A stretch of 63,812 bases of DNA, the filler included, from Dugesia japonica (Eukaryota), in the NCBI GenBank assembly GCA_001938525.1. It is 6 parts of 6 records of this genome, joined end to end, with 100 filler letters (N's around TTAATTAATTAA, not from the genome) between each part and the next. Parts side by side here need not be neighbours in the genome. Positions count along the whole stretch, not along the records: positions 9,532 to 19,735 come from MQRL01602536.1; 5 more parts are not named here. One strand, given 5' to 3'. The notes beneath the pieces were generated by a model. It ran no database searches. It worked only from the letters and a program-made list of their open reading frames with translations, and was not told where the DNA came from. The position numbers were made by a program, and so were the translations under genes. Shown here piece after piece: positions 7,251-51,800 of this stretch (its first letter is position 1; each line of letters opens with the position of its first letter).

Positions 7251-8744
7251 TTAATTATAAAAATATACACATAAATATAAAATTATTGAGCGGAAATAAA
7301 AAAAATGATATCCAAAATAATATTAAAAATTAAAACATTTAATCAAATATGAAAATTAACAAATACCAACGATTTTTCATCAGTGATAAATCACTCTTTA
7401 CAGAAATTATTAAAGATTTATTTACTCAAGAAAANNNNNNNNNNNNNNNNNNNNNNNNNNNNNNNNNNNNNNNNNNNNNNNNNNNNNNNNNNNNNNNNNN
7501 NNNNNNNNNNNNNNNNNNNNNNNNNNNNNNNNNNNNNNNNNNNNNNNNNNNNNNNNNNNNNNNNNNNNNNNNNNNNNNNNNNNNNNNNNNNNNNNNNNNN
7601 NNNAAATATTTACAAAGAAATTCAATAAAACTAATTAAATTTAATAATTAAATTTTATTAATTAAAATAATTAATTTTTCTTACAAATAAATATTTATTA
7701 TTTTAAATTTTATTTACCAAGACAATAGTAAAACATATAACTTTTTTTATAAAAGATTTCTTATTTAAATTAATTTTTCAATTAAATTGTATTATATTTT
7801 GTTTATTTGAAATGAATTAAGCGATAATTTAATTTAAAAAAAAAATTACTTAAATTTAATATTAGATTTTATGAAGAACTGCATGAGAATATCTCTGAAT
7901 TTCATTTAAGAATACTTTAATTCATTCACAATATGTTTCTTTCCACAGGAATTATTTGAAAATTTCTGACATGCATTCTAAAAGTGATAGTTTTACTTTT
8001 CTTTAAGTCATTTAGAATTTATAGAAATGAACTATGTAAACCGANAANAAATTAAATTGCAATAAACATCAATTTAATAAATATTTTGAAATTATAATTT
8101 TAATATGGAATTTATATAAAATAATTTTTTTACAAATGTGAAATTTAATTTCTGAAATATGATATATTAATTTATTTAATTAAAATTAAGTAATGAGAAT
8201 TATAATAATAATTTGATTGCTTGTCTGAATGAAGTGGTATGTATGTATGTATGGTAGGTATGTATGACGATATAATTGCCAAGAGAGTCAATCGGATAAT
8301 TCCTATATCTGATCGTCATATATACAAAAAGGATTGTTATCTAATGTACTTTTAACAACTGTTTTTTACATTTTTTGTTTTTATTAAATTTGATTGTTAG
8401 GCCATTAAAGTCTATCATACTTATTTGAAGACGGCTGAAGAGGTTAAAATTAACAAAGTGTATTTCATCTGTGTAATGGATTCCAAACTTTTAATCTACT
8501 TTATACTATTAAATTTCCTTTACGTTATTTTCTATCTTTCAATGAGTATTTTACTTTCAACAAATTTTACTTATAATTAAATTAATATTAATAATAATTT
8601 TAGATAAATTATTTTATTTAAAAGTCATTGAAACTCCCGATTTTAAGTAAATTTGGATAAGAAATTTTAATCATCAATAATAATTAATAATAATAAAAAT
8701 ATATTAATTAATTAATTAAATAATGAACACACAGCAAATCGATC

Positions 8745-9133
8745 AGAATAAGGTACAAGGCATGGGAAAGTGATCTTGCTGCATGACAACAATCCGAGTT
8801 CATGTAGCAAAACCTAATCAAAACAAGTTTAAAAAGCTGAAATGGGAAGTCTCATCCCATATACCGTACTCACTAGACATGTCTCCGTCGGATTACTACT
8901 TGTTCCGGCCGATGGCTTAACTAGTTATAAAAATGTCAAGAAATGTCTAGATGATTTGAATGCCTCCAAACAAGATCAATTATTCGATGATGAAATTCAT
9001 AAATTGCCCCAAATTTAGGAAAATGTTGTTGTTAAAGATGGAAATTATTTGTAATAAAAATTTATTTTGACCTTTTTCATTGTAATCGATTTTTTAAGTA
9101 GCAAAAGTTGGTGAACTCATAATTGTACACCTA
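8745..9133 (+). mobile_element. mariner (mauritiana/Mos1-like) 3' fragment
   Basis: RHGKVILLHDN...LKWEVSSHIPYSLDMSPSDYYLFR; 3' TIR ...TTGTACACCTA. Confidence 0.75.
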
Positions 9134-9531: not shown

Positions 9532-10178
9532 ATTGTCACTTGTGATGAAAAATGGGTTATTCATCACAATTGTAGACGTTCTGCACAATGATTAGATGCC
9601 GATCAGCTTCCTTTACACTGTCCTAAATCGGATTTACAACCGAAAAAGACAATGCTGACAATTTGGTGGTCTAAAGCTGGAGTCATAGATTTTTTTTTGT
9701 TAGAAGAAGGTTAAACTATTATTTCTGAAAATGAATTAATGCACAAAACATTATGCATTAAATAGCCTTCATTGGTCAATAGGAAAGACATCATCCTCTT
9801 GCATGATAATGCCCGACCAGATGTGGCAAAGAAGACGTAGCAAAAGTTGACAGACTTAAAAACTATAACTTTGCCACATCTACTATATTTGCCCGACTTA
9901 TCTCCAACAGATTCTCATTTTTTGTTTAACATTTTGATAATTCTTTGGTTAATAAAATCATTGTTGATCGGAAGGATGTCAAAATGGCCATTTTTAAATT
10001 CATAGACTCCAGAGAAAAATATTTTTTCACTAATGGTATTTTGAAACTAGTTTCTAGATGCAAAAAGGTGTAGAATTTGATGGTGACTATTTTACTTAAA
10101 TAAAATTTGATTTTATTGAACTTTTATTGATTTTGTTGTCTATTACGTAATCGGAAATTTCATATGTGACAACCTAAT
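9532..10178 (+). mobile_element. mariner (cecropia-like) 3' half, same family as 18229-19519
   Basis: IVTCDEKW...LLHDNARP...DLSPTDSH; TIR CATATGTGACAACCTAA followed by TA; 5' part lost in the linker gap. Confidence 0.85.
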
Positions 10179-13094
10179 ACATGCGAAAGTAAATGCAAAC
10201 TGCAGACAATATCGGATTACATTACTAAACTTTATAAAGAAAGTAAACTAGAAGATTACGAATTCGAAATCAATATGTATGGCATAATAATCCTGAATTC
10301 ATACCGAAACGATTAAATTTATCACCAAAAAGATTAAGAATACGGGACTTAAAGGAAGCCATTAAGGAAATAAAATGTTACAATGTAGATGGTATCAAAG
10401 GTCTAACTGTAAATCCATTTCTCGATTTGCCATTATTTAACGATGAACATCAATGAAACGAAAATTGGAACCAGCATAGACTGCAAATAGGTGATATTTG
10501 AATCAACATCCTGTCAGACAATAAAAACCTAATTTGTTACGGGGCACGTCCCCATGAAACAAAATTAATCAAATTGATAAATTGGGGTTTTGTATTCAGA
10601 CCGCAAATAATAATCCAGGAAATAGACACTGTTGAATTATATCATAACCTAGAAGAAACATTCCTAAGGAAAATAATTCCCACAAAGTCTCAAGGCTACT
10701 AGAAAAAACGACTCAAGGAAGTGAAGTTGATGGACCATCCAGACTTAGAACAAGAGGAAGCGTCACGATTATCGTTTTGATATCGATTTGATATTGGTAG
10801 CCACCCAGAAACTGCACTATAAAATCAAGAAGGAAGTATATCTAAAGCTAACTAATCAATTGGTAGAGTTATTGGAAGTTATAAAGTTGGTTACCAGTTT
10901 CGAAAGTGAGTGGACAGAGTGTTTGCCAGTACACTACGAATAGGTAATTTCAAACATCGGACTATCAGATTACCAAGTATGGTTGTACAAGCTTGAAGAA
11001 AATATGAAATTAACGCTCGGCGGGTTAATGGTAGAAGACCTAGAAATGGCACTCAATCAAGCGGGAAATACATGCCTAACAGATACGTTTGTATGCACCC
11101 CGAGTGCTCTAGTGGACTTAAATGCCAGAAAAAGCCACTTATATGTTTACAGAGTAAAATCAGAGGAGGAAATTGAAATTGTTATACTAGATAAACATCC
11201 AGGAATAGATTTTGACGAATCAGTAACGAAAACTGGACTATCAGTACTCGAAATCATGAGAGAAATGGGATACCTATATACAGAAGAAGTAGAACCTATT
11301 AAAATAAAGATACTCTCCAAGTATTAGGAAAGAAGGACAAGTTAACAAAGGAAGAAAGGAAACAATTATTGATGACACGTAATGATTTCTTCAAGCAACG
11401 ATTGGAGAGAAGGGAGGGACGATGCAATATGATAAGGATGCGGCAAATGCCGTCCAGAGAAGTAGTAGCGATGAAAAAAGTGGAGGAAATGATTAGCAAA
11501 GTACAAACAGAGAAGAAAAAGTTACCCCGAGAAATTTATTGGATGATAATGAATAGGATTTATGATGGAATAGAAATACCAGAGAAAATTGAAAATCAAT
11601 GGTGTATGATTAGACAGAAATATGCCGAGGAAATACTGGCGACTACTAAAATACTATATTTGAATGTAGGTAAAAATGAGCAGCATATGAATAAGTAAAG
11701 TCGGTTAAAGCCACAAGGGATAACTATGATGGACATAGTGGATGCCATCACGGATAAATGACAAGAGTATGGATTAAACATGGAACCATTGTATATAAAC
11801 GGTAAATTGGTTGAAACCGGCGATGAAGATAAACACATATTTCAATGTCATGCGAATTCAGGAGAATTATGCGAATTAGACGTAAAAGGAAGTCCCAAAC
11901 AGATCAGCCGCCGGATCTAGAGGGACGAATGGGAGAGATAATTGAAGTATACGTAACCGAAGTACTAACAGGTATTAAGGAGCAAGTAAAGGAGAACCAA
12001 AAGATATAGAATAATGACAACCTACCCATAGTCACAACAAAATCGGTTGAATTTTAGGAAGGGACACCAACAATACGGATGAACTATACGAAACCAATAA
12101 CTGAAGAATCTGCCACGTTTCACGCCATCAATGACCTACTGAGAGTAACACTGGAAACTTGACCGGTAGTAGACTTGAAGGTATATTGGAAAATGATGAA
12201 CAATTTAAGAGATTTAGCTATCTATGGGCAACTCAGCTTATGGGCCGGCGCAGAATGGTGGAAAGAGAAAAACGTATATGAAGACGAAGTACAAAATAAC
12301 TCAGCCATATCAGATTATTCAATCAGAGTAAGTCTCATCAGCAAAAAAGGAATCATTAAGAAAGTAGAGATGATACCACTCGAAGAATTAACGATCCGAA
12401 ACGTCGTGAAACCAATCAAGAAATGGTTGTGGCCAAAATCACTCAAGTCATATAAAATGCAAGCTAGGGCAACAATGATAATATTAGCTAAGAAAGGAGA
12501 CTAAATTTTTTTACACGATATTAAACCCGTAGAGATAACGAAAATCAAATTAACGCCGCAGAAAATGAAGGTGGATTTTCCACTACAAAAAATGCTGGAT
12601 ACAGACCAACTAATATTCAATATGATGAGTTTATATCTACAAAAGATATTGCCAGTGGAAAACAAACGCCTCACAAACATATATAGAGAAAACAAGGCCC
12701 ACGTAAACATGGTTAGGAGTAATGACCCAGAAGCCACAGCTCGGAACATGCCACGTTATTAGAAATCAAGTTTAGGGTAATCGACCCTGAGGGAGATAAA
12801 ACCTCGGTTAAAATACCTATTTATAATACACTGAAACACCTCCGGGATAGATTACACTTTAAACCACCATATAAACTCTTGGACGAAGATGGAGTAGTAG
12901 AAGAGATCACACCAATCGGATTAATAAAGATAGACTTAATCAAGCCCAATACGTTATGAGTTTTTCGGGAATCATCTATTACCAAACCTCAAAATAGATG
13001 TAGACCAAGAACGAAACCTCTAGGAAACCCAGAGAAGGAAGAAGCATTTAAACAAAAAAGACTAGTCACATCAGTAAATCACCAAACTAAGAGG

Positions 13095-13540
13095 TTGGCA
13101 GCCGTGTCACAGGAAAGATACTGTGGAAATTCGGCAGAAGATGACATACCAACCGAGGTACTAATACGGCAACTGTTATTAATGTTGTACCCAGAGTTAA
13201 AAATATTGATCGGGAAATTTCAATTATCAGATGGTCTCAGACCACTGGCAAAGGAATTGGAGGCAGCCTTTAGGAAATTTCCGGCTAGTAAAGGTAAAAG
13301 TCATGGTACGAGAGATAACTTGGATGGAGTATTGGATGAGCTTATACAAGAACAACCAACAAAAGGACGGATAGTGGTATATATCGCCCACCTAATTAAT
13401 CAGAAACACCTATCGATAGCCAGAAGTAAGCCGTAAAAAAACTTCATTCTTAGTAAACTACCGATAATGGACCTGATGCGGAATAAAATTGTACCATTGA
13501 TAAAGCAATATTGGGGATGGAAAAATTTATTGAAACAATA
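13095..13540 (+). pseudogene. Bcl-2-like domain (BH3/BH1/BH2-like) within the decayed polyprotein
   Basis: GLRPLAKELEAAFRKF (BH3-like); LDGVLDELIQEQPTKGRIVVYIAHL (BH1-like); after one in-frame TAA at 13434, IVPLIKQYWGW then EKFIE after a 1-nt shift (BH2-like). Confidence 0.6.
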
Positions 13541-13639
13541 TGCCCTAAGCCACAGCCATCACATGAAAACGTAACCAGAGTAATCAGAATCGTAAGAGAT
13601 CAATTAGACGAAATTGAAAATAGATGGGCGCGTGGACCT

Positions 13640-14100
13640 CGCCGAAATTCATGGCAAGCACTAACAACTACCATACTTCTATTATTTTTAATGATGGGTA
13701 GAAGTGAAACCATATTAACTTATGACTGCAATGGGATGCAAGTTGGGAAGGAGGTTTTTTCATTAATAGATACCAAAGAATTTCTAGAGACGAATCCAAA
13801 GAAAATTTCACTCCGAAATAATTCCGTTTACCACCTATATCAGGAATCAGATTATTATAAGACTCAAATTCCCGAATATATAGTGACGGTAAAAAAATTT
13901 ATATTTCATTGTGGGTATCATAGTTACACCTCTATAATCGATCCGGGAAAAAACATCCTGTGCATCTAACGGGACCACATAAATCACAGGATTACCAGTG
14001 GCAAGCAACGCCCACTGTACTAATGTCCTCAGAACAGGACGAGACAATACGATTGATCAAAGGAAATTCCATGTCGAAATGTGGAAAAATTATGTAACAT
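13640..14100 (+). pseudogene. Chuvirus-like envelope glycoprotein N-terminal fragment
   Basis: Signal-like WQALTTTILLLFLMMGRS then ILTYDC...FSLID...LYQESDY...V...FHCGYHSYTSII...HCTNVLRTG. This resembles the chuviral G N-terminal pattern YDC..SL.D..Q..CGxHSxxS; truncated at a microsatellite. Confidence 0.7.
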
Positions 14101-15689
14101 TTATAACAGTTATAACTGTTATAACAATTATAACAGTTTATCAACTTTTCGAACAGTTTTTATTTTCCATATTTGCGTAGCTTCATTATTGAATGTCTTC
14201 ATTTCTTGTATTTCAATTGTTATCATCCATTTATCTTCATTTACATATCCTTCATCATATGTGTTTTTCAAGACGTCCTTAGAATTAATATAAGCATAGT
14301 CTTTTATTGACATTGATTTGCTTAATAATGAATTTATTAGCTATTTATCCGACGAACTAATCTTCTGTATAACCATACCAAATGGATTTCTTTTTAAATG
14401 AACAGGCTCCAAAATAAAAAAGTATTAATAGTAAATAATAAATAATATTTCTTTAAATGTATACAGTATATGTGTCTTCAGGAATTTCATTTTACGCTGA
14501 TAAAAATCCACAGTTTTTCCACATTCAATATTAATATTCAATACATTATCAATTATAAATAATTGTTTTTATCCCATTTAAAAATAATGATATATTTTTA
14601 AAAGTTCTCGATTATATACATACTTGTACTGATTAAAATAATTTCATTGGTTAATTTTGAAGAGTGTGTATATGTAAATTACATAGCAGTTGGTTAGTTT
14701 TTCTAATACCCATGTATCTATACGATTTTTATTTGCTGTAATTTTTATAAATTGGAGAAATTTATAAATTAAATAATTTTTTAAATGAACGATATTGAAA
14801 AAATTATAGAAAAAATGGCTGAATTAAAAATATCCGAAACAAATCAATCCGCTGATATTATTTTTGATAAAATTTAATTATTTTATTTCTGATTTATTTA
14901 ATTAATTTATATATTTAGAATCAATAATCAGCGTTACTGGTGAAATTGCAGAAAAACTAGCTCAGTAGAAAATCTTCTATTCAAAAAATAAAATTGAAAC
15001 AGATAATATGTCTGAGAGAAATAAACTTTTATTGGAAAGATGTAACATTATATATAATTCATTTTAATAATGTATATATACATTTTAGAGCCAATAATTG
15101 ATCTATTAGATTTATTTTTCCGAAAGTGTAAAAACGAATCAATTTATTGGTATAAAATGAAGAATTATACCATCATCGATATTGATGAAACTATGTGAAT
15201 TTACAATAAATATCAAAAAGAAAAATACAAAATGGTCAAAATGGATTGAAAAGAAAGTTTTTTAATTCGTTTATTCCTGCTATCAATAAATGTTGTTAAA
15301 TGTACTAAATGTATTAATTTAATGTAATAAATGTTTCTTTATCAAAGTTTTATTAATTATTGCATTATTTTTTACATTATTATTTTCTATGATGTGAAAA
15401 TTTATATAATTTGTTAAAATACAATTGAAATGCGATTGTTAAGCAGTTTAAATAAAGAAACATAGATAAGAATACTGGAGAATATGTTGAGTGTCATTGT
15501 TAAAAAGTAAAAAAAAATTTACAAAAATTTTCAAAAATAAATAAATAAATAAGACATTCCAAAAAAACCTTTTTAAAATACTTGTAAAACGTTCTCAAAA
15601 AAATAAGTGTTCTAATAAACAAAAAATTAAAAAAAATTCAAAATTAAATTTTAAAAGTTATGTGTTTCCGTGAGGGTGATACTATTTTT

Positions 15690-16812
15690 TAGTTATGCGT
15701 TATAAGTAGGAAAGAATATGAAAAATCATAATCAATGTGGGAAATATTTTGTTGTAAAAATTTGTTGGATTATATGATGTTGTATTTGAACCTGGATGTG
15801 TATTTTTTAACCGATTTTTTCCAGCAATTCCGTACAAAGTCTTTAGCGCACAACAATTTGGAACCGTTGAATTCTTCCGGTATACCAGGAATGTCATGGC
15901 ATCTATGTTAATGTCATTAGAAAACCCATTGAATTGCTGCAAGATAGCGATATGTCTACCTTTTTCGAAGGAAGTATAAAAGGAGAGTTAATATTTGTAA
16001 ATAAGTATCATGCTGCAACTACAGAAAATGTTGGCTTGTTGTATATAAATAATAATAATTTATATGGTTGAGCAATGAGTCAAAAGTTAAGTGGGTCTAT
16101 GATGTATTAGATAAAATTTGGAAGAGTCTAAGAATGCAGATCTAGACTCATACTATAGATGGTCATGATGATTCCGGCAGAAATATAGGATTATTTGAAT
16201 GATTTGATGCTTACAGCAGTACATACTAGTACTCCAGGTTCCAAAGTGAAGAAAATAATATTAATGCGTAGTGCACCGGAGAATGCTGCAAATGTATATA
16301 AGTTTAGGGGATAAAATAACAGAGGTTCATAGAGGTGTTAAATTCAACCACGCCCCAATTTTTCAGAAATATATCAATACCAACACAATTTTAAGATCAA
16401 AATGCGATATAAAATTGGATGAGAGATCAGGTACTTCATACTTCAAATTTTGATAAAAATTCCGCCAATTATAGTAATAGAATGAATTTAATTATATGGA
16501 AATTTAAAGGTAAGAATAAAGGAAAGTTATTTCAAGAATGACTATTTTTAGGCCAAAATGATATAGCCTGCTTGGAGATAAGAACAGCTTAAAAGCCAAA
16601 TGAATATCATGGAAAAACACATCTCATCAGTCTTACCGTGACTGTTATAATGTGAATAAATTGGTATCGTTGAAACAATTTAGAATTAACACATAAAATC
16701 AATAATTTTATATTATAAAATCAATTAAATTAGCACTTACAAACACAGACGATAAGCGTGGATGGGTTAGTAAAAATAAAAGTGTGTCATATGAACATTA
16801 TACCATTAAATA
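15690..16812 (+). mobile_element. Polinton/Maverick-type protein-primed DNA polymerase B relic
   Basis: Collinear motifs LLYINNNNLYG*AMSQKL, HRRMLQMYISLGDKITEVHRGVKF..IFQKYINTNTILR, GKFK..., KLALTNTDDKR; many stops, frameshifts and internal deletions. Confidence 0.85.
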
Positions 16813-17589
16813 GTTTTACACATCAATTCGATTCAGACTGACATAGAACGAGGCCTCATAAATAAATAATCTTTCTTTTTTATAATTAAGATTATCATAG
16901 GAAAAAGAAAAAAGATAAAAGCCAAACAAATTGTGAAAGTAAATTAAGTCTACTTTTTGGTCAAAAAATGCTACAAATTTTGATTAAATAACGTTAACTA
17001 AAATCCATGTTGTTATTTATCCTGTTTTTTTTTCATTTATCATGTGATTGTTATGAACATGCATTATACATGTAGTGAACATGACGTAAGAATGCATTAT
17101 ACTTGACATTAAACTGTTTTCATGCAAATAACACAATGCAACTATGTAAATAATACCAACCCTCTTCACACAAAAACTATTTATACTCATAAACCATATA
17201 CATTCATGAAACACTATTTACTTAAAAATAATTTATAGGCTTATAAGATAGTTATAAAGTAATTTTAAGTTATATATATATGGAGAAGTTCCACACTTTT
17301 ATGATTTTTCTTAAAGAAAAGTTCCACTTTGAATATTTTATCATGTTAATATCCTTGGAATCTCTTCTTTAATTCTTTTTACAATAGATACATTTTATAA
17401 TAGAAATATCTCAATGTCTTCCTCTTTGAATATTTTATGATGTTAATTCAAAATTTTAACCTGCCCGGAACATAAACAAAAATATCAAGACTGTCCAATC
17501 TCTTGCAAAAATATCAGGACTGCCCAAAAAAAACATTCACGAAACATCATTTTTATTAAAAAACATAAATTTTTAAAAAATCATTACGC

Positions 17590-18010
17590 CATGCCTACCT
17601 ATAACGAAGTCACGTGATTAGGGGGTCTTACATTTGTGACGATGCGTGGCGAGGGAGGAGGGGGATCTAAGATATGTGACTTAACATCAAAATAAATAAA
17701 ATTATTGAATTTTACCTATTTTAATATATTCCTGTAACTGAGTAACATAGTGCACTGTTGATCATCAGGGAAGAATATTTGAAGCTAGACACAGCTCTGG
17801 GCTGAACATTGCTATCTCTTTTAAAAAGGATGACAAATATTAATTTGGAACCCGTAAATTTTCATTTTTAGAAATAAATGTTTGGGGGAGGAGGTATAGA
17901 TTTTGTGACGTAATATTTAAAGGTTCTGACTTTTTGTGACTAAGTGTGACAATGGAAGGGGAGGGTGTAAAGAATCATCCAAAATTGTGTGACGTCATTT
18001 ATGGATGACA
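17590..18010. mobile_element. Non-autonomous DNA transposon/MITE
   Basis: Terminal GTGACGTCATTTATGGATGAC plus repeated subterminal GGGG-rich/TGTGAC motifs; left end degenerate. Confidence 0.45.
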
Positions 18011-18228
18011 ATTTACAGAAAAAAATCATTTAAATCTTGGAATTTGTATTAATTAATTTCCTTTCCAACAAAATATTTTTCCTCCCAAGAAGAAATTTCT
18101 TTAAAACCATTATATCACTTACAAAAATTAAACAATCAAATTATCTTACATAACGTAACTATCACCAATTCATGGGCACATTACCTCAAGAAATAGATTA
18201 ATGCACTCATATCATATCTACTCTTTGA

Positions 18229-19519
18229 TAAGGTTGTCACATATGAAAGGTCCAATTACGTAATAGACAATAAAATCAATAAAAGTCCAATAAAATCAAA
18301 TTTTATTTAAGAAATACAGTCACCATCGGATTCTACACCTTTTTGCAATCTAGAAACTACTTTAAAAATACCATTAGCAAAAGAATTTCTTTCTCCGGAG
18401 TCTAGGAATTCGGATATGGCCATTTTGACATCCTCCCGATCAGCAATGATTTTTTTAACCAAATAATTATCAAAATGCTTAAAAAAATGATAATCTGTTG
18501 GAGATAAATCGGAAAAATATGGTAGATGTGGCACAGTTTCAATTTTTAAGTCTGTCAACTTTGGCGACGTCTTCTTTGCCACATGTGGTGTGGCATTATC
18601 ATGCAAGAGGATGATTACTTTCCCATTGACCAATGAAATCTTTTTAATTCATAGTTTTTTGTGCATTAATTTAATTTTAGAACAGTATTTGTCTGAGTTA
18701 ATAGTTTAACCTTCTTTTAACAAAGACAAATATATTACTCCAGCTATAGACCACCAAATTGTCAGCATTATCATTTTTGGGTGTAAATCCGATGTAGGAC
18801 AGTGTAAAGGAGGCTGATCGGCATCTTATCATTGTGCAGAACGTCTACAATTGTGATGAGTAAACCACTTTTCATCACAAGTGACAATGCGATGTAAAAA
18901 AGATTCTGATTTATTTCGATCCAGCAGCATTTGGCAAATTTTCATTCTTTGCGATTTTTTGGAATTATTTAATAAATGATGAACCCATTAGTTCATCTTT
19001 TGTTTCTTTCCTATGCCTTTCAAATGACGGGAAATTGTTTGACGACTAACGTCTAACGTTTTACTAAGTTTTCGTACTGATTTACTAGTGCTTAGTTCCA
19101 CTTCACGTTTTACATCGTCGTTGCTAATGACAACCCCGGGGTGCCCCCTCTCCACATTGACCCGGGTTAAATCACCCTTTTGAAATTTGTCGAACCATCT
19201 TCAAAGAGTTCTTTCATTAGCTGAACCCTCTCCAAATGCAAAATTAATGCAAAATTAATGCAGCTTCTGTTGGGTTATGCTTTAATTTTCATTCATATAA
19301 AAATAATGTTTGCATTTACGTATTTCTTAGCTTGTGTTCCATGCTGTCTAAAAGTAATTTAAATGAATATATTTTTAAAACAAATAATATATAATGATAA
19401 TCAAAAATTCCACCTTCAAAATGATATATAAATAAGTTCTAATTGTTAAATATTACATAAAAATATATTAGTTTAAAAAACGAGTTCCTAAATCGGATAT
19501 TTCATTTGTGACAACCTAA
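18229..19519 (-). mobile_element. Near full-length mariner (cecropia-like), transposase pseudogene
   Basis: TIRs AGGTTGTCACATATGAAA / TTTCATTTGTGACAACCTAA followed by TA; ~1.29 kb; IVTCDEKW, LHDNATPH, YFSDLSPTDYHFF. Confidence 0.9.
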
Positions 19520-19835
19520 TATCTTCCATATTTTGTGTTCTGGTCTACATTTGTGGAGAGTTGTACAAAAGAGTTGCATCATATTTGCAAACAACCAATT
19601 GAAATGTATTGTGCCATTCATAATAATGATTCATCATTTCTAATTTATTATCACATATTTATATAAAATTAATATTTAATAATCTCTATCAAAATTTATT
19701 ATTTATTTTTATTCCAATTGAAAAATCACAACCAANNNNNNNNNNNNNNNNNNNNNNNNNNNNNNNNNNNNNNNNNNNNTTAATTAATTAANNNNNNNNN
19801 NNNNNNNNNNNNNNNNNNNNNNNNNNNNNNNNNNN

Positions 19836-27678: not shown

Positions 27679-30600
27679 CGAGGACTGTCTGAAAAGTTTT
27701 TAACCCGACCCATTTCCAAACAAATTTTTGAATTTTTGTCAACAGTTTATTAAAATTCATTCTTAATTTAGTATTAATAAACCGATTATTATATTTTTAT
27801 CATTTAATTAATAGTATTATTTTTTGTTTTAGTAAATAACATCGGATGAATTAAAAAATTTTGAAAAAGTTGAATATTGAGCTGTCATAAAATATCTTTT
27901 TTTTAAAGGACCTAAGCCCAAAAGAAATTTATGAAGACATTAGCAGAACATTAAAGAAAATATGCTCGTTATATGCAACAGTTAAAAATTAGGTATCATC
28001 ATTTGAGAGAGGCAAAAAAAGCATTCAAGATGAGCCAAGGTCCGGACGACCATTTTCTACATCAACTCGGTAGAACATTGAAAAAGTGCACGAAATAATT
28101 CTTGAAAATCTTCGAATTTCAATAAGAATTATTGCTGAGACCCTAAAGCTATGCAAAGAACGTGTTGGTAAAATCATTCACGAAGATTTAGATATGAATA
28201 AGCTTTCTGCAAAATGGATCCCTAAATGACAGAATTCTGATCAGAAGCAAACACAAGTGTAGAGTTCAAAGGTGTTTTTTTCACATTTTGCAAGCGATAA
28301 AAGTAAATTTATTAATCAAATTCTGACCGTCGATAAAGCATGGTTGCATTTCTTTGATCCTGAAATCAAACAACAATCCATGGAGTAGAGGAATTATGGA
28401 TCGCCCTGACCCCAAAAATTCCGAAAACAAAAGTCTGCAGGAAAAGTCTTAGCCACTGTTTTTTGGGATTGAAAAGGCATTGTGGGGATAGACTTTTTAT
28501 AAAAAGCTCAACGATAAATTCGGAATATTCGAAATAGTCAAAGTTAAAGAAAAATTAAAACAAAAACGACCTGGAAAGTTAAGAAATGGTATTCAATTTT
28601 TGCTGAACAATGCACCTACACACCCCGCCTTACAGACATTGAATACAATTCAAGATATTGTTTTCCAAGTTTTAGAACATCCAGCCTATTCTTCTGATTT
28701 GGCTCCGTCCGATTATTTTTTTTTTTTATATTTGAAACAAATGTTGAAAGGAAAGCATTTCAAAACAAACAGTGATGTTATCGAAACTACGAAGGCATGG
28801 TTTAAAGCCCAATCTGCGGACTTTTACTATGAAGGCATAGCTTCATTATAAAAAAAGATGTAATAAGTGTGTTATGATGTTTTAATATTATACATAAAAA
28901 TTTTATTTAATAATAATTGAAGAAATTTCAATTAAAAAAAAAGAAAATAATTAAAGCAATTAATTGTTTTAATATTGCTATTTTGGTAGAATAAATTTTT
29001 CACTAGACTTAATTGTAACTTATTAATACATATTTAAAAATGGAAACTGCAGAAAGTTTAACAGCGGCTAAGATGGCCTTCCACGCAAGTGCGACAAAGG
29101 ACCTNCTCGTACAAGCTTTGAGGCCAAAAACATATCATCAAGGAGATGACGTTGAGAAGTTTATATATATATATCCAATGCCAAACATAGAGAAACTGCT
29201 AGATACATTAAATGGAACCCGTTTTTTCAGCACAATTGACCTAGGCAATGCGTATTATTAAGTTAAATTGGAAGAATAGTCACAGGAAAAAACATCGTTC
29301 TCAACCAAAAAAGGTCAATACTGTTTCACAAGGATGCCGTTCGGAATTGCAGCAGCGNCAGATACATTTCAGGAATTGATGACAAACGTACTGGGGAGCA
29401 CACCTGGAGCTATGGTGTATATGGATGATATTTTAATTTATTCCGATAATGCCACTGACCATTTCAAGACACTGGACACTGTATCAACCCCAAGAAATGC
29501 AGTCTACTGCGGAAAGAGGTAAATTTTCTAGGATATATTTTGGACGAAAATAGCATTGGAACAGATCCTGCAAAAATACAAAGTATACAGAACTTCGAGA
29601 GGCCAAAATGTACAAAACAAGTCAGAAGTTTTCTAGGTATGTGTAACTACTACCTGAAATTCATCAAGGGATATTCTGCTAAAGCCTAAGTATTAGAAGA
29701 ATTATGTGACAGAAACGAAGACAAGCTAATATGGACACCGATATGCAACTAGGCATTTCAAGAATTGAAACAGGCTTTAATAAAAACACCGTGCTGGCTT
29801 TTCCAGATAGAAATAAAGATTTCATATTAGACACTGATGCAAGTTTTAACAGCATCGGGGCTGTGCTATCACAACTGGATGAGAACGGTAGAGAAAGAGT
29901 GATCGCGTACAGAAAAGGAGAAGCACATTCCAATGCAGATATGTTATCCAGAATGCAGTGCAAAACTTGTGTACAATGTGAAATGCAGCATAAAGAAGCA
30001 AATACAGGTAAGATTAAAACACGAAATCTATGTACGATGATAACGGATACGGAGTTCAAATGGCAGAAGGATAATGTTGAAATAAAGAATATAATAAGGA
30101 ACATCAACGAAGGTGGAAATTCAGAATATTTAATAAAAAAAAGGGATAGTCAGAACAAAAAGCAACAAAATATGGATTCCAAAAGAGAAACGATCAGAAT
30201 GGATAAAAGAAATTTACACCATACTAATACAAGCGGGTCAAGAAAAGATGTTACATTATATTACAAGAGGATATGATATGCTGAATATGCACGAAATAGT
30301 AACAGAGACAACACGGACATACGAAGATTACCAAACGAATAAAATGTACACATCAATAACAAAAGAGGAGAAAATAACACTGCAAGCTTATCCTGTATTT
30401 GAAAAGATCTATATCGATGTATGTGGACCGTTCAAAGAGACACATTGAAGAAAGAAATACATTCTAGCCTTAATAGATAACTATTGTAAATATATCATTG
30501 TTGGCCATAGGAAGACAGGATGAGGAAACCATATGCAGGATAATCATGGAAAAATGAATATTACGGTTTGTAGCACTAAAAGAGATACATACGGATTGCG

Positions 30601-31412
30601 GAAAGACTTTCAAATCAAAGGCGTTCAAGGATATGGCATACAGAATGGACATAGAGCTATGTTACTCGAGCCCATACCACCACGGGACAAATGGCTTGGT
30701 TGAGAGACAGTCCAGAACCATCAGGGACTGCATAAATGCATCTGGAAAAGCTAATTGGGACGAAAAGATTCCAGAATTAGAGTTCATGATGAATGTCACA
30801 TATCAAAGACGATTAAAACTAGATTCGAAGAGAAAAATGGACTGATCATGAAGACGTAGAAGAAAAATTGATCAGTGGAGAATTATACCTAACCCACAGA
30901 GCTTTAAAAATTAATCAGAAAGTATTGGTGAAAAACGAAGTACGGTCAAAGGACAAGGTGAGATACGATGGCCTATACGAGATAAAGGAAACGATTCATG
31001 AAAGAAGGTACAAGCTAGAAGACAAGCAAGGAAGAGTAATATACATAAATGTGGAAAAGTTGAAATTTCTTAAAGAAAGGGGATGTTAGGATGTTTTAAT
31101 ATTATACATAAAAATTTTATGAAAAGTTTCATAAAATTTTATTTAATAATAATTGAAGAAATTTNNNNNNNNNNNNNNNNNNNNNNNNNNNNNNNNNNNN
31201 NNNNNNNNNNNNNNNNNNNTTAGAATAAATTTTTCACTAGACTTAATTGTAACTTATTAATAAATATTTATAGATGGAAACTGCAGAAAGTATGGCAGCG
31301 GCTAACAAAGTGTATTAATTGTTTGGGAGAATATATTGAATAAAAATACTGGTTTTCTATTTTTTGAAATATTTTGTATGGGTTACGCTAAAAACCTTTC
31401 AGACCATTCTAA
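27679..31412 (+). mobile_element. mariner (irritans-like), split by the gypsy insertion at 28870-31307
   Basis: TIRs CGAGGACTGTCTGAAAAGTTTT / AAAACCTTTCAGACCATTCT; AVIKYLF, ILTVDKAW, HPAYSSDLAPSDYFFF; the C-terminus resumes after 31312 (GEYIE*). Confidence 0.85.
28870..31307 (+). mobile_element. Ty3/gypsy LTR retrotransposon, internally deleted; LTRs 28870-29073 and 31084-31307
   Basis: TG...CA ends, 5-bp TSD AAGTG, PPT AAAGAAAGGGGA. RT (FSTIDLGNAYY, MPFG, VYMDDILI), RNase H (ILDTDASFNSIGAVLSQ) and integrase (SPYHHGTNGLVER) in gypsy order. Confidence 0.95.
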
Positions 31413-42386: not shown

Positions 42387-42793
42387 TTAGGAGCCTGTTT
42401 GTGACTGGGAAAGATGTGAGGTAGGAGATGAAGAATCTGGTTTGAGTTGTTTAGCAGGAGAATCTGGAGAATGACGAGATAAATCAGGACTAGGATTATC
42501 AGAACCCTGATGAGTCACTGAGAAAGAATTTTCTTGACTGGGAGGTTGATTTGCTTGAAGGTTTTCTCGTCCCCGCTTAACAAGATCATGAAGTTCTCTG
42601 GTTAATATTTGCCTTGATTGATCCGCACTGGCGGGTATTTGAAGAAGTATGATTAAATCATTAGCATCAAAATGTTGATCCAATAATAAAAGTGCACCAT
42701 GAACCCCAGAATCAGTGAGGTTACCAGCATATTCTCGTAGATCGATATGCTCAATCCATGACATAACTCTTTCACAAGACCAAACAAGAACAT
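42387..42793 (-). CDS. PPFIA: Liprin-alpha terminal exon (third SAM domain plus Ser/Pro-rich tail)
   Basis: Acceptor TTTCAG then (D)VLVWSCERVMSWIEHIDLREYAGNLTDSGVHGALLLLDQHFDANDLIILLQIP...RQILTRELHDL, matching liprin-alpha SAM3; TAA at 42387. Confidence 0.88.
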
Positions 42794-43783
42794 CTGAAAC
42801 GAAATAAATATCATAATAAGACTACATATCATAATGACCACAGTAATCATTACAAAGATTTCATTGATTTATACGAAACTAATTCGTAACAGTGTTAGTG
42901 AATTGTTACAATTTCTAAAAGTGATTCGCGACACACACTAGCATCATCAGTCAGTAATTTGATTACATGAAACTATCACGAGCCTAATTGATTGACTCAA
43001 CAAATCATAAAAAATGAAGAAAGGTAGTGTGTGTTTATTATCACATTATAATTCACTATATGTTATTAACATCAAGTTAAACTTTTTTAATTTCAAATTA
43101 ACTTTTATATTAAATTAATGTTTAATATTAAGTTTCAAATATATTTCATTTGCTGAGAATTAAGTTCAACACCTGTTTAAATGTTAGCAATTATAGTAAT
43201 CGTAGTAAAACAAATTATATTTTAATTTAAAATCTTTAAATACTCTTTATAAAAATTACTATCAATACATCGTTCGACGAATTAAATATTGAAATTAATA
43301 ACAATTATTACAATGCAAGTCACAAAAAAATCAGGTGATGGTAATTTAAAAAATGCAGATAACTTACCTGAAACAGTGGGGGGGGGAAATTATTCTAAAA
43401 ATGAGTTATGACAAAAGAGATTTTGATAAAATGCTATGAAGACGGTTAAGCAATAATAGAATCAGCAGAACATTCAGGACTTAATAAAAGCATCGTTACA
43501 TCTATAATTAGACATCATAAAGATGGATGTGAGATTGCAAGACAAAATCGCGGTAGAACGAGGATCGTTAAATTATCTGGTAAGATATTAAATTATGTGG
43601 AGCAAATGATTGAAGAAAATCCATCAATTACTTCAAAAATATGAAGTTGAAGATTTTTGAAAATAAAAACGTCAACATGACTTNNNNNNNNNNNNNNNNN
43701 NNNNNNNNNNNNNNNNNNNNNNNNNNNTTAATTAATTAANNNNNNNNNNNNNNNNNNNNNNNNNNNNNNNNNNNNNNNNNNNN

Positions 43784-44800
43784 ATTATTGCGGCTGCAAA
43801 TTCCTGGAAGGTTTCATTTTCCCTTTGTTTCATTCCTGCCAGTTGTTCATATAGTCCTCAAATACATTTATTTTCTCGTTCCTTTACTGTTCCTTCCTCC
43901 ATTACTTTTTTAGCAATTTTTCCTACTTCCTTTTTTTACTTGATTAATGGGTGTCTTATCTGCTTCTGTATGTAGCATATAAAGTCTTTCCGGTTCATTG
44001 TTCTTGGTTAGTTTTTTAAAAACTTGCCATTTTCCATTCACACACCTCACTTCTTCGTCTTCATGCATATTATTTCTACTACCTTGACATCCTTTCTTAG
44101 GGCAATTAATTTTCGATGACCGGTTTTTTGACAATAACGACAGAGGAGTGGTTCATTCGTGCAGTCCTTACTCTTATGCCCTTTTCGTCCGAATCTTCCA
44201 CGTTTTTTCTTTATATAACGGGAATAATTTTTCTGATGACCATTGCGTCGACATTTACTGCATCGTCCTGGTCGTGAGACTGGCTCTGATGTCACTGGTT
44301 CATATTCCTGATGCATTTTGATAGCTTCTTCTAATGTTTGAGGTTTTCGATTTTTGATAAATGGTTGTAATTTTTTATCCAAGATTCCTTCAATATAGGG
44401 GTTGATGCATGCACTATCCTTTTCTGGGGACCAACTTTCCGTCTAAAGGAGTTGTCTAAACCTGAGAGCATATAATATTGGACTCTCTCCTTCTTGCTGT
44501 TTGCAGTATACTACTTCTCGCAATGCTTGTTTGAATTCTCTTGTGATTTCAAAGTTTTTTCGTTATAATTGTTCTATATCATTCCATGATTTGAACAGTT
44601 CACCTGTAGCCCTTATCTGTTGTCTGTTGCATTTTGCAGTTCCTTCCAGGTGAAGTGGTATCATATTGATTTTGTCTTTTTCTTCCCACTCAAAAGCTTT
44701 GGCATGCTCTTCATAGCTTAGGAAGAACTCGTTTATTTCTTCGGGATTACCTTTGAAGGATACACCGCGATATCGTTCTAATGATTTTCGTTGCATATTT
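43784..44800 (-). mobile_element. Gypsy-type gag pseudogene with CCHC knuckles
   Basis: FKGNPEEINEFFLSYEEHAKAFEWEEKDKINMIPLHLEGTAK; PQTLEEAI; CSKCRRNGH; CRYCQKTGH. Confidence 0.75.
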
Positions 44801-45379
44801 CTAAAAGAAGATATAATTACACACTAATTTACTTGGATAGTGCCAATTGGTACAACAATTTCCGACTCGATTGTGCTTGCTCCAATGAATGTTTGGCACC
44901 TGTAACACTTTAAAATATTTTTTTAATAACCCATCGCTACTATTTACCCTTTAATCTAAGTCATTCACTTGTTAACGTCATTTTTATCTCTTCACCCACC
45001 CTCGGTTTGTTTAAATTCGACGTCCTCGTCGAACTCTTTATTAAGGCTGCTGATTGATATCTACTCGTTTTCTGCTGATATACCATCACTGGGAGTTAAT
45101 TTTGAAGTCTCATTTCAATCCTATAATGTCCTTCGTATTTATTTTGCAGTAATTGACTGATTTTGTATTTGTTATCAAATTTGATTCAATAGCTAATTGT
45201 ATAGCTTGATTTAATATCGAATATTATATCTGATTTAATAATTGCTTTATTACTTATTAGTAGGTTATTTATGAGATAAAATCACTCCTTTGTACTTTAT
45301 AAATGTAATATGCTTATGAGAAATAATGAATTTTGTAATCCTCCCTTTTAGATACAATTCTGTTTTACTTATGAAATGT

Positions 45380-46360
45380 AATAATCTTTGTAATTTTGCT
45401 CATGAACTGTAATGATCTTTAAATAACTTTGCTGTCCCCAACGTAATATCCTTTTGGAATTTACTCGTGAAATACAATACTTTACGTAATTTGCTGCTGA
45501 ACTGTAATGTTCTTTGTAAACTTTGCTGTCTAAAACATAATATCTTTTCGTGATTTTCTCTTGAAATACAATACTTATTCACAATTTGCTGCTAAACTAT
45601 ATCCTTTATAATTTACTCTTGAAATACAATACTTTTTCGCAATTTGCTGCTGAACTATATCCTTTATAATTTACTCTTGAAATACAATACTTATTCNCAA
45701 TTTGCTGCTGAACCATATCCTTTGTAATTTACTCTTGAAATACAATACTTATTCACAATTTGCTGCTGAACTATATCCTTTACAATTTATTCTTGAAATA
45801 CAATACTTATTCGCAAATTGCTGCTGACTGTAACACATAATATTCTTTTAAATTTTCTCTTGGAATACAATACTTATTCGCAATTTGCTGCTGACTGTAA
45901 CACATAATATTCTATTATAATTTACTCTTGGAATACAATAGTTATTCGCAATTTGCTGCTGAACTGTAACACATAATATCCTTTTATAATTTACTCTTGA
46001 AATACAATACTTTTTCGCAATTTGCTGCTGAACTATATCCTTTATAATTTACTCTTNNNNNNNNNNNNNNNNNNNNNNNNNNNNNNNNNNNNNNNNNNNN
46101 NNNNNNTGCTGCTGAACTATATCCTTTATAATTTACTCTTGAAATACAATACTTATTCGCAATTTGCTGCTGAACTATATATTTTTTTATAATTTACTCT
46201 TGAAATACAATACTTATTCGCAATTTGCTGCTGAACTATATCCTTTATAATTTACTCTTGAAATACAATACTTNNNNNCAATTTGCTGCTGAACCATATC
46301 CTTTGTAATTTACTCTTGAAATACAATACTTATTCACAATTTGCTGCTGAACTATGATAA
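45380..46360. repeat. 58-bp tandem array upstream of gag
   Basis: Unit TATCCTTTATAATTTACTCTTGAAATACAATACTTATTCGCAATTTGCTGCTGAACTA, about 15 copies, some with a GTAACACATAA insert. Confidence 0.9.
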
Positions 46361-48863
46361 TCTTTATATAACTTTTACTCTTATAACTTATTTGCAAATT
46401 GCTTATGTCAGGAATAAACAGTAAAATTTCGTCACTTGGACCAGAAGGAGGCGCTAGTATTCGTTGCCTTCATGATTTGCATTTTGCTTGTACAGGCGCA
46501 ATAAATAATTCTGGTGACGAGTTAGTTGGTTAAATCCAGTAGCTGTGGCTACTATGAGACTTATATAAGCCTAGATCTGTATTGATCGTGTCCTCTGAAA
46601 AGTATTTAGTACATCCTGAAAGTAAGTTTACTACCGTTACTCACATCTAAGATTCGTTACCTTGTATAAGACGTGGACGGATTATCGCTTTCCGCCGAGA
46701 CTGGTTTTCCCTTCCGATCCCGTTGCTTTCCTCATTTTATAACAGTCATAACTACTCGAGCAGCTTGTGCGGCGGACAACTGAGCCGATCGTATCTCAGA
46801 TGTCTGGTTGATCAGACCAATTTCACAACTCCTAATCTCGGCTAGTATAATAGTTGACCCCTTATTGCACGAAGTCTTCCTGTGGGTTATGTTAATTTAA
46901 TTTTGTCACCTTCCTTGCTCCTAGGCGCGTTGGGAGTACCATTTAAGTAGCAGGCAAACTCTTCTCTCCGCCAAATTAATCTTTGTCAATTCTTGTTTCT
47001 AGCCAAGCTTGTGAGGTAGGAGAACTTCACCGTAAACCCTTAATTTATTTCATTTTTATTTCCAACATTATTAAGTTGCTCATACATATCACTCTAAGAT
47101 CCAGAGTTCACATTAATTTCACTATTCTTACTTTACTCATCTTGAATTTGCTTAATCTTTAACCTTAATATACTTATTTACTCAATCAAAGTATAATTAA
47201 CTTACTTTAATAATCACAATCCTGATGTGTTTTATATTCGTTTCCATACTTGTAGTTTGCTTTCTACTTCTTTCAAGATTCTTAATTTNNNNNNNNNNNN
47301 NNNNNNNNNNNNNNNNNNNNNNNNNNNNNNNNNNNNNNNNNNNNNNNNNNNNNNNNNNNNNNNNNNNNNNNNNNNNNNNNNNNNNNNNNNNNNNNNNNNN
47401 NNNNNNTCCTTTAATTCCCATAATCTTAATCTAATTTCTTAACTATTTTAATTTCTTACTTTACTAACTTAATTGCTTTAATTTCTTGATTTCTTACTTT
47501 ACTAACTTATTTGCTTTAATTTCTTGATTTCTTACTTTAATTTTTTAACTTTTATTTATTAATTATTCTAATTTCTTGATTCCTTACTTTAACTTTGAAT
47601 TTAATATTCTTAATCTACTTTGTTCATTTTAATTCCATCATTCTAGGTCTATTATACTTCCTTTGATCTTAATTTACTTTAATTTCATTTTACCGATATT
47701 TATTTTAATTTTAATATCATCTTCCAAATTCTCTTTTTTATTTAAAAATTTTTTTTTCACTTTGTCTTAATCTTATTAACTTTTAATTTATTCTAAGTTT
47801 CTTGGTCTATTTTATTATTATTGGTTTATATGCTTGACGCAATTTAAAGATTTTCTTTTTTNTTCATTCTTTTACTATTTCAATTTTATTAATACTAACC
47901 ATTTCATAGTGGACATATTTTGATATTCAGTAAAATATCCAATTTCATCAACAGTGAAATTTTATTAGTATTTTAAGTAAATAATTTTGAATTTAGTTAT
48001 GCAAGATTCAGAATATAATTTAGTCAAGAATTTCACGCGGGTATGTCGCGAAAAGCAGCCTGGAAAATAGGACAGAATCATTATTAATTTGTTAACAGAA
48101 CAAAAAATTAAATCGTATTAAATTGCATGTTTTAGATCAGGTCTGCTTATCAAATACAATCCTGGAGTAGGCGTCACTTTGAGAATGAATAACGGTCCTT
48201 TTTAGGACCAAAATTTATGGTTGCCCTTTATTTTATAATTATCGAAGAGGTTAAGGTCTTATCTTTTTATTATTTATAAATTATTTTTAGTCCTTAATTA
48301 TTATACTTTTATGTTAATTATACTTATTCATATCGATCATTTGCCATTAATTTGGTTTGGAGTTTATTAATATCCGTTTATCATTTTATAAATAAGTGTT
48401 ATATAATTTATCGTGCTACCTAATTTGGTATTACCATATAAATACTGCGAATGATTGTAGCGAAATTTAATTCGCTTAATTTTAACTCTTTTTTACTTTA
48501 CCGCTTAGATACACATAGATGCTAATAAGTTTTAATACATAAACAGTTAGATTCATTTTTAACAGTTTGTCAGAAGAGAGTTTGAAATATATTTGAAGAA
48601 AAAATATAATTTTATGTTTATTAATAATTTGTATTTCTTTTTTAGTATTAAAAGAATATTCAATATCTGGGCCAATAAACATGTTGAAATTTTGATCGCA
48701 CTAAAAAAATGTTAAATAGTTGAGTGTCAATAGAGTTTTCATTGTTGGGATTCTAAAGAACTTGCTCACCGTATTTACAATTATTGTCATATTCATTGTT
48801 TTTATGACAATAACATTTTGACCATTTAATTGATTATTATGACATTCATTTTATCATCGATTT

Positions 48864-51800
48864 TGATAGGTAGATCTTCAATTGTTAATTCATTTTATAA
48901 ATCAGAATTCATATTGTTAGAAATTTTATTTTTTACTACAACAAACTATAATTTATAAGATAAATAATTATGAAATAAAAGTATTTAAATATTAATATTT
49001 AGATATTTCAATTCCTATTGGGTGAGATTATTAATTAATAATTATTTCCTNNNNNNNNNNNNNNNNNNNNNNNNNNNNNNNNNNNNNNNNNNNNNNNNNN
49101 TTTAAATATTAATATTTAGATATTTCAATTCCTATTGGGTGAGATTATTAATTAATAATTATTTCCTCATATCCAAGAATGTATTTTTTTCGTCCACTTG
49201 TTTCCCGCATTGGCCTACATATATGTGTGAATATCACTTCAAACAAATTGGTAGCTTCTAATCTCTTTATCTTCTCTTTAGTTGGTGTTGTCACTACTTT
49301 GGTCATCTGACAAATTTCACAACTACAAACTATCTTCTATATTTGGCTCCACAAAATCTTTGCAATATATTTGTTTCTCATATATTCGTACACCTTTTCA
49401 ACTCCTGAATGATATAATAATTTATGTATTTTTTCTATTGTTTCATGTAATTTGTCATCCTGAATTTTAATTTTCTTGATCAAATCTGTTTCCTCAGAAA
49501 TGTTTAAATGATCTTCTTTTTCCTTTTCGATTATGTTCAGTATTCTCGTTTTAATCTTCTCTTTCTTGGCATCTTCATGTGGCATTTGACATTGTACACA
49601 TACCTCACATCATGGTCTAGATAACATATCTGCATTACTAGGTTGAATTTCTTTTCTATATTCCAAAACCATGTCTAAACTGCTCAGATAATTAATACAT
49701 GTCTGGAATTGGGATGTAATTGGTTTCTTTGTCATCATCATGAAAGTTAGAACTTTGTGATCTGTTCTTAGAGAAAATCTTCTACCGTACAAGTAATGTT
49801 TGAAATGCATACAGAAATAATAAACAGCCAATAACTCCTTTCGTGTAATGCAGTATCCATTTTTATGACTTGTTATTGAGTGTGATCCGTAAGCAACAAC
49901 TCTTTCTCTTCCTTCTTTATATCTCTGTGACAATACTGCTCCAATTGTATCGAAATTGGCATCTGTGTCCAATATAAATTCTCTGTTTATGTCTGAAAAA
50001 CACAATATTGGTGCAGTCATTAGAGATTTATTTAGAACCTCAAAATTATCTTTTATTTCATCTGTCCATTCTAATTTCTTGTTGCTTGGTCCGCTACACA
50101 ACTGCTCTAATATTTTTGATTTTCTTGCGTAGTTTTCTTTAAATTTCCGGTAATAATTACAAATTCACAAGAAACTTTGTAACTTCTTCACACAGTTATG
50201 TTTGCCAAATGTTCTTATAGCTTCTATTTTAGACGCATCAGTTCTAACACCATCCTTGCTAATTATGTTTCCAAGAAATTTGATTGCACTTTGAAAAACC
50301 TCACACTTCTCTGGATTAATTTTAAGACCAGCTTTCATTATTTCCATCAATACTTTTTCAATGACTTCATAGTGTTGATCTTTATTGTTCGTAAATATCA
50401 GAATGTCATCAAGATAAACCATGGCTCCAGTGATTCCGCCAACCACTTTTGTCATCATCTCCAGAAATATCCCTGGTGCCGCTGCGATGCTAAATAGCAT
50501 TCTATAAAACAATATTAACCGTGTTTCGTTGAAAACGCCGTTTTTTCTTGAGATTCTTCTTCGAACTCTACCTGATAGTATGCATTTCCAAAATCTATTA
50601 AACTGAATTATTTGGCTACATCTAACTTGTCCAGCATTTCATCGACATTAGACATCAGAAAGGCTTGTCCAAAATCCAAGCATATTCTTATGTCCTTCTT
50701 TTCCTTTTTCCAAATACAGATCAATGGAGAGTTGCATTTCCGAATAATATTATTATCGAAAAGGTTTTGGACAGCTTCATCAATTTTAGCTTCTAAATTC
50801 ATTGGTTGTCTGTACGGTTTTAGATTGATTGGTTCGCCGCTTTTGATTATTTTGTGTCTTGTCAGATGTGTGCATTCTACATCCCATTTATCTGTCATAA
50901 ACGCATCTTCTTTACTTCCAATTATTTTAAATAACTTTTGATCTTATTTAATCTTCAAAATATTTAATGCTCTTCTCAATCGATCTCCTTTTTTAATTTG
51001 TCTTCCGAATTTCGCTTCAGTATTACACATGTAATTTTTGACTTTTCATCCGTTTGCCTATCAATCTTTTGCATAAGCTGGTATCCCAAATTTCTCTGCA
51101 TACCTATTCCTCTTATCAGATCTGGTGTCACTCTTTCAGCCATAAAGAAAGTAATTTCTTTGCAAACTTCATCAATTATCACTCCAATTCTAACTTTACC
51201 AACAATTTTAAGTGTACTATTATTTTCACAACGCAAGCTTTCATCACTCATTTGTAAATTTACTTCTCATAATTTATTAAAACAACTCAAACTCATCACG
51301 TTAATTGAAGCCTCTGTATCTAATAGACATTCGACTTTATTTCCTTGAATTGAGACTGTCACACTTGGTCTTCCTTGCAATTTATGGTACGAAATTTTTG
51401 TTTTCTTTTCTGCTTCAACTGTTCCAACCCATTCTAATTTTCTTTCATCCGCAAAATTTTCCCTCTTTAAGAACTTGTATACTTTTTCTGTGACTTTTCC
51501 TATATCATCCCACTTTTTGACTCCTTGAGGATAATTACTCACTTCATTTAACAATGGATGACTCTAACCAACTCCTCTACTGGTGGAGCCCTGCCTTTTG
51601 GATACTGCCTTTCGGAATCACTTTCATATAATTCCTAATATCCATCGTTTGTACTGACATCTTCATTTTCAATCGCATGTACTCGATTATAACGGTTTCT
51701 TGATCTTTCTGCAGTCATAAATTTCTCATTGGTTCTTTTTATTTTCAAATTTGTGTAGCACTCTTCTGCTCTATGTCCACTATTGCCACATCGTTTACAC

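Follow-up and report, generated by a model that had tools for sequence, protein, structure and literature searches.

A decayed env-region fragment in the planarian Dugesia japonica, most probably from a giant Ty3/gypsy retroelement of the Burro type

Glycoproteins of chuvirus type occur in animal genomes both as insertions of RNA-virus genes and as the env of retroelements. Which of the two lies at positions 13640-14100 of the DNA studied here? The window, as we call the whole stretch analysed, is 63,812 nucleotides long and joins six parts of assembly GCA_001938525.1; positions 9,532 to 19,735 come from MQRL01602536.1. The sequence-only reading had named the locus an endogenised chuvirus-like glycoprotein, derived either from past infection by a chu-like RNA virus or from env capture by an LTR retrotransposon. 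Our analysis indicates that the stretch is very probably what is left of the env region in a giant GAG-ENV-POL Ty3/gypsy LTR retroelement of the Burro type. The class of the window copy rests on its relatives, because no gag, pol or LTR was linked to the copy itself.

The glycoprotein piece and the tract that carries it

A Pfam scan of 29 window ORFs gave a match to PF24664 (Monjiviricetes_fusion) in one of them, ORF 13487-13969 (+). Residues 59-154 of this ORF matched profile positions 5-98 of 653 at E 5.5e-11, and the score of 41.6 bits lay above the curated cut-off of 27. The proposed similarity to a viral-type glycoprotein is therefore real, and 13661-13948 (+) encodes the N-terminal piece of a Monjiviricetes-type (gB-like, class III) Env. 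A full HMMER search found 31 proteins related to this piece at E <= 0.001. The most hydrophobic 15-mer of the ORF, with a mean Kyte-Doolittle value of 1.73, lies at 13655-13699 (+); the relatives are hydrophobic at the same position, and hydropathy predicts a likely internal signal peptide of Env. A word-based protein search with the G piece found nothing among 43 candidates and one with the G alignment found 2 proteins only, and the G alignment had 0 matches to PDB sequences.

The motif spacing of chuviral G had been given as YDC, SLxD, Q, CGYHS and CxxxLxTG. In the alignment, YDC, SLxD, YQ and CGYHS of the window ORF lined up with the relatives. The CxxxLxTG motif was mis-assigned, because it had been pieced together across a deletion joint. 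Two of the four Cys columns conserved in the relatives over the N-terminal part of Env carry other residues in the window, in agreement with the two mutated Cys positions noted earlier, and at a fifth conserved Cys column the window sequence has a gap. The alignment to the relative P0006 breaks off at P0006 residue 236 (window 13939) and restarts in another frame at residue 393 (window 14002). Therefore about 150 Env residues, including the fifth conserved Cys and the true CxxxLxTG-type motif, have been deleted.

Behind this internal deletion, a second Env piece lies at 14002-14094 (+) and forms the end of the element. It was identified by tblastn and by shuffle tests against P0006, P0015, P0030 and P0024. 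Against P0006 it reached a z of 10.6, with 0 of 200 shuffles scoring as high, and 10 of the 14 relatives tested likewise gave 0 of 200. The similarity to Env stops at 14094, adjoining a 9-bp tandem repeat at the right breakpoint (14095-14138; TRF period 9, 4.9 copies, score 67), and therefore the C-terminal part of Env, over half of the protein, is absent. Neither the three plus-strand frames of 14101-15602 nor the six frames of 15650-16551 gave a Pfam match, and no continuation of Env or pol was seen there. About 125 of some 650 Env residues remain in the window, in two pieces. A functional fusogen, understood as one with a full-length ectodomain, the conserved Cys residues and the C-terminal part, is not encoded by the window Env.

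A decayed coding tract of 3.9 kb, 10179-14094 (+), has the Env sequence at its 3' end. Composition, a stop-poor path and the coverage by contigs from host DNA runs mark this tract as a decayed internal fragment of a polyprotein ORF, probably of a giant Burro-like Ty3/gypsy element, that belongs to a multicopy family. Over most of its length the GC content is 0.33-0.41 and the strand is purine-rich, against a GC content of about 0.2-0.26 in the DNA to the right. The stop-poor path on the plus strand runs through 8 frame segments and 13 stops. The first part, 10182-12720 (+), was traced by stop-poor frames as about 830 codons of broken coding sequence, which we describe as an accessory region. 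Pfam matches there stayed at noise level, comparison with what precedes Env in 14 relatives gave nothing beyond a z of 2.0, and inspection by eye showed no Gag knuckle. Within 12163-12504, one part had a faint likeness to MATH as judged by eye. No MATH, BIR, ankyrin or Gag domain was found in the window copy, and Pfam scans of the window ORFs found no pol or N/L domain in the tract. Among the repeats listed (20 of 38 families), no LTR-like direct repeat flanked it. The window copy is cut at both ends and is without PR-RT-RH-IN downstream of Env.

A mariner-type transposase remnant at 9533-10178 (+; PF01359, E 8.1e-13) lies outside the element and abuts the left end of the tract. An inverted second mariner-type copy is found at 18228-18888; the two copies are 84-91% complementary, and between them lie the tract and a further 4 kb. 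At about 8700-9060 a third mariner-like remnant was seen by eye, where Pfam gave no match.

We compared the locus with two host DNA runs, from which 4797 and 3779 contigs aligned on 9540-16600, mostly at less than 95% likeness. In both runs the tract was covered along its whole length by diverged contigs, and exact contigs spanned the G piece. Summed over contigs, the depth on the tract came to about 400 to 30,000, compared with about 10 for single exact contigs; this is not a copy number. Some contigs left out stretches elsewhere in the tract, 13232-13682 for example. This coverage, together with the divergence and the skipped parts, shows that the tract is host DNA and one of a diverged family of repeats that includes deletion derivatives. 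In two poly(A) RNA runs, about a quarter of each being read, the depth over the tract was at most 1.5, which is weak evidence. At 15676-16147 the summed contig depth rose to 96,000; this is another abundant repeat, with no Pfam match in six frames. Rfam had 0 matches on the window.

Taken together, the window copy is dead, being broken by stops, frame breaks and an internal deletion and truncated at both ends. The decay proposed in the sequence-only reading is borne out by these lesions, and its suggestion that the element might be infectious fails for this copy.

A Bcl-2-like domain and a SUMO-like candidate upstream of Env

Planarian Burro/GYPSM1 polyproteins have been described as containing Gag, MATH, Ubi2/SUMO-like and BCL2 domains, an in-frame env and PR-RT-RH-IN (PMC6431247). 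In this study, eight window segments were compared with the upstream parts of 14 relatives, using z-scores from shuffled sequences. The segment 13152-13571 (+) gave a z of 17.5 to P0025, 6.7 to P0006 and 5.9 to P0008; the values for P0032 (0.6) and P0007 (0.2) were not significant. Apart from this segment and 12726-12956, the remaining six window segments had z values of 2.4 or less. The segment contains one stop, and a frame break separates it from env. By eye it shows what we take to be BH1/BH2/BH3-like motifs, as a lead only.

A Bcl-2-like alignment was built from the window segment and five relatives, picked partly for their Bcl-2-like look. Its profile matched Bcl-xL at E 5e-5. With Pfam Bcl-2 at a loose cut-off, five of the six rows matched (best E 2.5e-5), the window row being the exception; alone, the window segment had no match in Pfam and only unrelated weak rows among PDB sequences. 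A profile built without the window placed 13152-13571 first of 1278 six-frame chunks at E 0.001, which weakened to E 0.03 when P0025 was also left out. Among the 17 relatives with at least 100 residues upstream of G, six carry a Bcl-2-like domain there, five of them by construction of the alignment and P0037 independently (E 1.6e-8; z 6.5 to the window segment).

A single-sequence fold of the Bcl-2-like piece had a pLDDT of 42, too poor for use, and a model built on the Bcl-2-like rows had a pLDDT of 58. Foldseek with this model placed Bcl-2/Bcl-xL rows at the top, none at E <= 0.001. In VIA-align, the top 32 rows were Bcl-2-fold chains (best Z 7.9, rmsd 3.0, 110 aligned), and the first unrelated row had a Z of 4.9. 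A Z below 8 is modest for a helical protein; the VIA-align rows agreed among themselves, and viral Bcl-2 proteins were present among the fold matches. Atlas was uninformative for this piece. These results suggest that 13152-13571 has a Bcl-2 fold with BH1/BH2-like segments, as predicted by a model of modest confidence.

Upstream of it, a candidate ubiquitin/SUMO-like domain was placed at 12747-12956 (+) by alignment to P0003 and by Atlas. The segment 12726-12956 reached a z of 8.3 against the upstream part of P0003, with 0 of 200 shuffles as high. The Atlas leads, PF11976 (0.83) and PF00240 (0.81), both fell below the 0.9 level that the tool uses. Pfam and PDB profile searches with the alignment of 12747-12956 gave no ubiquitin-like match (one unrelated row from the PDB), and a word-based protein search with the SUMO-Bcl-2 piece found nothing among 615 candidates. 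We regard the SUMO-like identity as a lead.

Relatives of the glycoprotein and its possible origins

The sequence-only reading had called for pol and LTR to be weighed against viral N and L genes around other copies; this was examined in the relatives of the Env piece. Of the 31 relatives, 24 were scanned, and PF24664 was present in all 24, above the cut-off in 23. An in-frame aspartic protease followed Env in six of the 24, and three of these six also had RT, RNase H and integrase. A CCHC knuckle (zf-CCHC) was found upstream in two, P0007 and P0016, and a Pfam Bcl-2 match just upstream of Env in one. None of the 24 had an RNA-virus L or N domain. We take the gag-asp_protease, RT_RNaseH and Integrase_H2C2 domains of the relatives to be Ty3/gypsy. 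In P0006 the same Bcl-2-Env block runs on into the retroelement protease, and a 4,844-aa cluster member contains Env, several protease-like domains, ankyrin, RT, RH and IN.

A tree was calculated from 103 columns and 35 rows, with P0014 (too short) and P0035 (no G) left out and with labelled exogenous chuvirus G outside its scope. The window fell in a 31-row group with all the gypsy polyproteins, apart from four rows that include the wasp protein P0013 (support 100/99). The rows nearest to it by path were P0037, which has the Bcl-2-Env block, and P0003; local support was weak. Among 30 relatives looked up, one is the wasp protein P0013 and one, P0012, has a record under a bacterial MAG. Locus scans of viral contigs, metagenome contigs and prokaryote genomes found no relative.

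Several relatives have features of their own. P0012 is a 2,627-aa Env-PR-RT-IN polyprotein filed under a Flavobacteriaceae MAG and is probably eukaryotic contamination. The UniParc-derived P0005 and P0022, in which the glycoprotein is fused to MRP-L47 and to FAD-oxidase C, are probably gene-model artefacts. The Env-pol polyproteins P0015, P0016 and P0034 each have several aspartic-protease-like domains, up to seven matched stretches in P0034, which additionally has ankyrin and C2H2 fingers.

Because the Bcl-2-like domain upstream of Env is shared, it ties the window to gypsy-type polyproteins, and we examined whether these need be of the Burro type. The element could instead come from a different lineage, or a different host, of env-carrying GAG-ENV-POL Ty3/gypsy elements and share the Bcl-2-Env block with Burro by descent or convergence. 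GAG-ENV-POL elements are reported not to be monophyletic and to occur also in nematodes and bryozoans (PMC13524379), and the window yielded no MATH, BIR or Gag. However, a Bcl-2 domain directly before Env was found in print for Burro only, in a search that left subscription journals largely outside, and the AT-rich genome fits planarians (PMC11410931). We therefore consider this origin unlikely. The AT-rich sequence and the type of element are compatible with the likely flatworm host of the sequence-only reading.

Less probable still is the direct endogenisation of a G gene from a chu-like (Jingchuvirales/Monjiviricetes) RNA virus that was later multiplied in the genome. The Monjiviricetes fusion protein was the sole Pfam family matched, no pol or LTR lay beside the window copy (for repeats, among those listed), and chuvirus glycoproteins that stand alone are known from mosquitoes (PMC7642597). 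Against this, N/L similarity was absent from the window ORFs and from the 24 relatives, the common upstream Bcl-2-like domain points to gypsy-type polyproteins, and the tract upstream of G is multicopy over its length. We find no support at this locus for a past infection by a chu-like RNA virus. Of the endogenised chuvirus-like glycoprotein, the glycoprotein stands and the stand-alone chuvirus insertion does not, as the piece is the 3' end of a 3.9-kb multicopy tract with a Bcl-2-like domain. The proposed env capture by an LTR retrotransposon is upheld as to the retrotransposon, through the Ty3/gypsy relatives and the common Bcl-2-like domain; a recent or local capture is not, since such env genes are argued to be ancient (PMC13524379).

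The most improbable origin is a piece of some large DNA virus, or of another composite mobile element, that carried a viral Bcl-2 together with a gB-like fusogen, or else an env domesticated by the host: viral Bcl-2 proteins among the fold matches, the two inverted mariner copies enclosing 10179-18227 and an upstream region that matches no family would suit an origin of this kind, but relatives with the same block run into a retroelement protease (P0006), and a broken, truncated gene rules out domestication of the window copy.

Intact members and known systems

The reading that we prefer, a remnant of a Burro-type GAG-ENV-POL element, allows a scheme for intact members, with processing steps drawn from the relatives and from general knowledge of polyprotein processing. 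On one strand of the window, the Bcl-2-like domain, the hydrophobic segment and the start of the gB-type glycoprotein follow each other. This order recurs in frame in the relatives, where protease, RT, RNase H and integrase come next. Intact members would make one polyprotein, in which an internal signal peptide equivalent to 13655-13699 would direct Env into the ER. After cleavage there, the Bcl-2-like part would remain on the cytosolic side, perhaps fixed to the membrane by the signal peptide in the manner of a tail anchor. This cytosolic or membrane-tethered part may delay apoptosis of the producing cell, and Env, as a class III fusogen, would let particles move between host cells. The window copy would be a fossil of retrotransposition and later deletion that does none of these steps.

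A previous report noted that Burro env matches mononegavirus fusion glycoproteins and that decaying Burro fragments, with stops and frameshifts, occur in a third dugesiid (PMC6431247). Compared by description, the window copy resembles Burro/GYPSM1 in its order of SUMO-like (as a lead), Bcl-2-like and Env parts inside a single long ORF, in being multicopy and in its decay (PMC6431247). Env is preceded by the Bcl-2-like domain in both, in frame in the relatives and with a frame break in the window copy. The window copy differs in being without Gag, PR, RT, IN and LTRs, in that MATH, BIR and ankyrin were undetected, and in its roughly 830 upstream codons that match nothing. A complete element of the Burro type would be expected to exceed 25 kb and to have long LTRs and an N-terminal Gag with CCHC knuckles. 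BURRO1 has been reported to be under piRNA control (PMC8532177).

GAG-ENV-POL Ty3/gypsy 'errantiviruses' with HSV/gB-type, Chuviridae-like ENV have been reported in Platyhelminthes, Nematoda and Bryozoa, and gB-type env is argued to have accompanied Ty3/gypsy elements since early metazoans (PMC13524379). The main text of that report has 0 occurrences of Bcl or Burro, and its LTR search left out spans above 14 kb (PMC13524379). Its elements share with the relatives P0012, P0015, P0016, P0020 and P0034 the gB-like glycoprotein ahead of pol. The window copy is not intact. Anakin, a BEL/Pao element of mosquitoes with a chuvirus-derived glycoprotein (PMC7642597), is similar in that the same Pfam glycoprotein type serves as a retroelement env and was multiplied by retrotransposition; it differs in being BEL/Pao, while we take the relatives here to be Ty3/gypsy, with Env before pol and a Bcl-2-like domain. 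Jingchuvirales glycoprotein EVEs of arthropods, often near gypsy fragments, are likewise homologous glycoprotein fossils in animal genomes (PMC10084718). In contrast, the sole labelled insect protein of our tree, the wasp P0013, belongs to the separate four-row group. For a Bcl-2-Env retroelement, the literature search, with subscription journals mostly outside it, found no paper other than PMC6431247.

The window element is therefore a decayed member of a kind already described, and adds little beyond PMC6431247 and PMC13524379. In a genome of this sort, a 'chuvirus glycoprotein' match should not be taken to record that a chuvirus once infected the host; since the window glycoprotein is a retroelement env, EVE surveys that use G alone would miscount. 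As several divergent relatives have the Bcl-2-Env block, its host range and what a Bcl-2 does in a retroelement become open to testing. A bolder reading, which we hold to be rather doubtful, assigns the fragment to a separate lineage of giant Ty3/gypsy viruses with envelopes, with a Bcl-2 homolog coupled to the Env signal peptide and some 800 accessory residues of no known family. Bcl-2-Env relatives lie in ENA and JGI contigs, so the range of such a lineage may exceed dugesiid planarians, with intact members mobile from cell to cell.

Two other gypsy remnants were observed in the window. Both are about 28-41% identical to the RT region of the relatives, and no link to the tract at 10179-14094 was made. 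The one at 28987-31305 (+) is short, and its pieces of RT, RNase H and integrase are enclosed by a pair of 85-nt direct repeats, 93% alike, that are possibly LTR parts. The other, at 44047-51400 (-), has a Ty3 capsid and a CCHC knuckle at 44050-44442 and RT and RNase H at 49163-50958; tandem arrays, 58-bp ones among them, separate the capsid part from the RT part. A host exon with a SAM domain (E 1e-9), presumably liprin/kazrin-like, lies at 42390-42821 (-).
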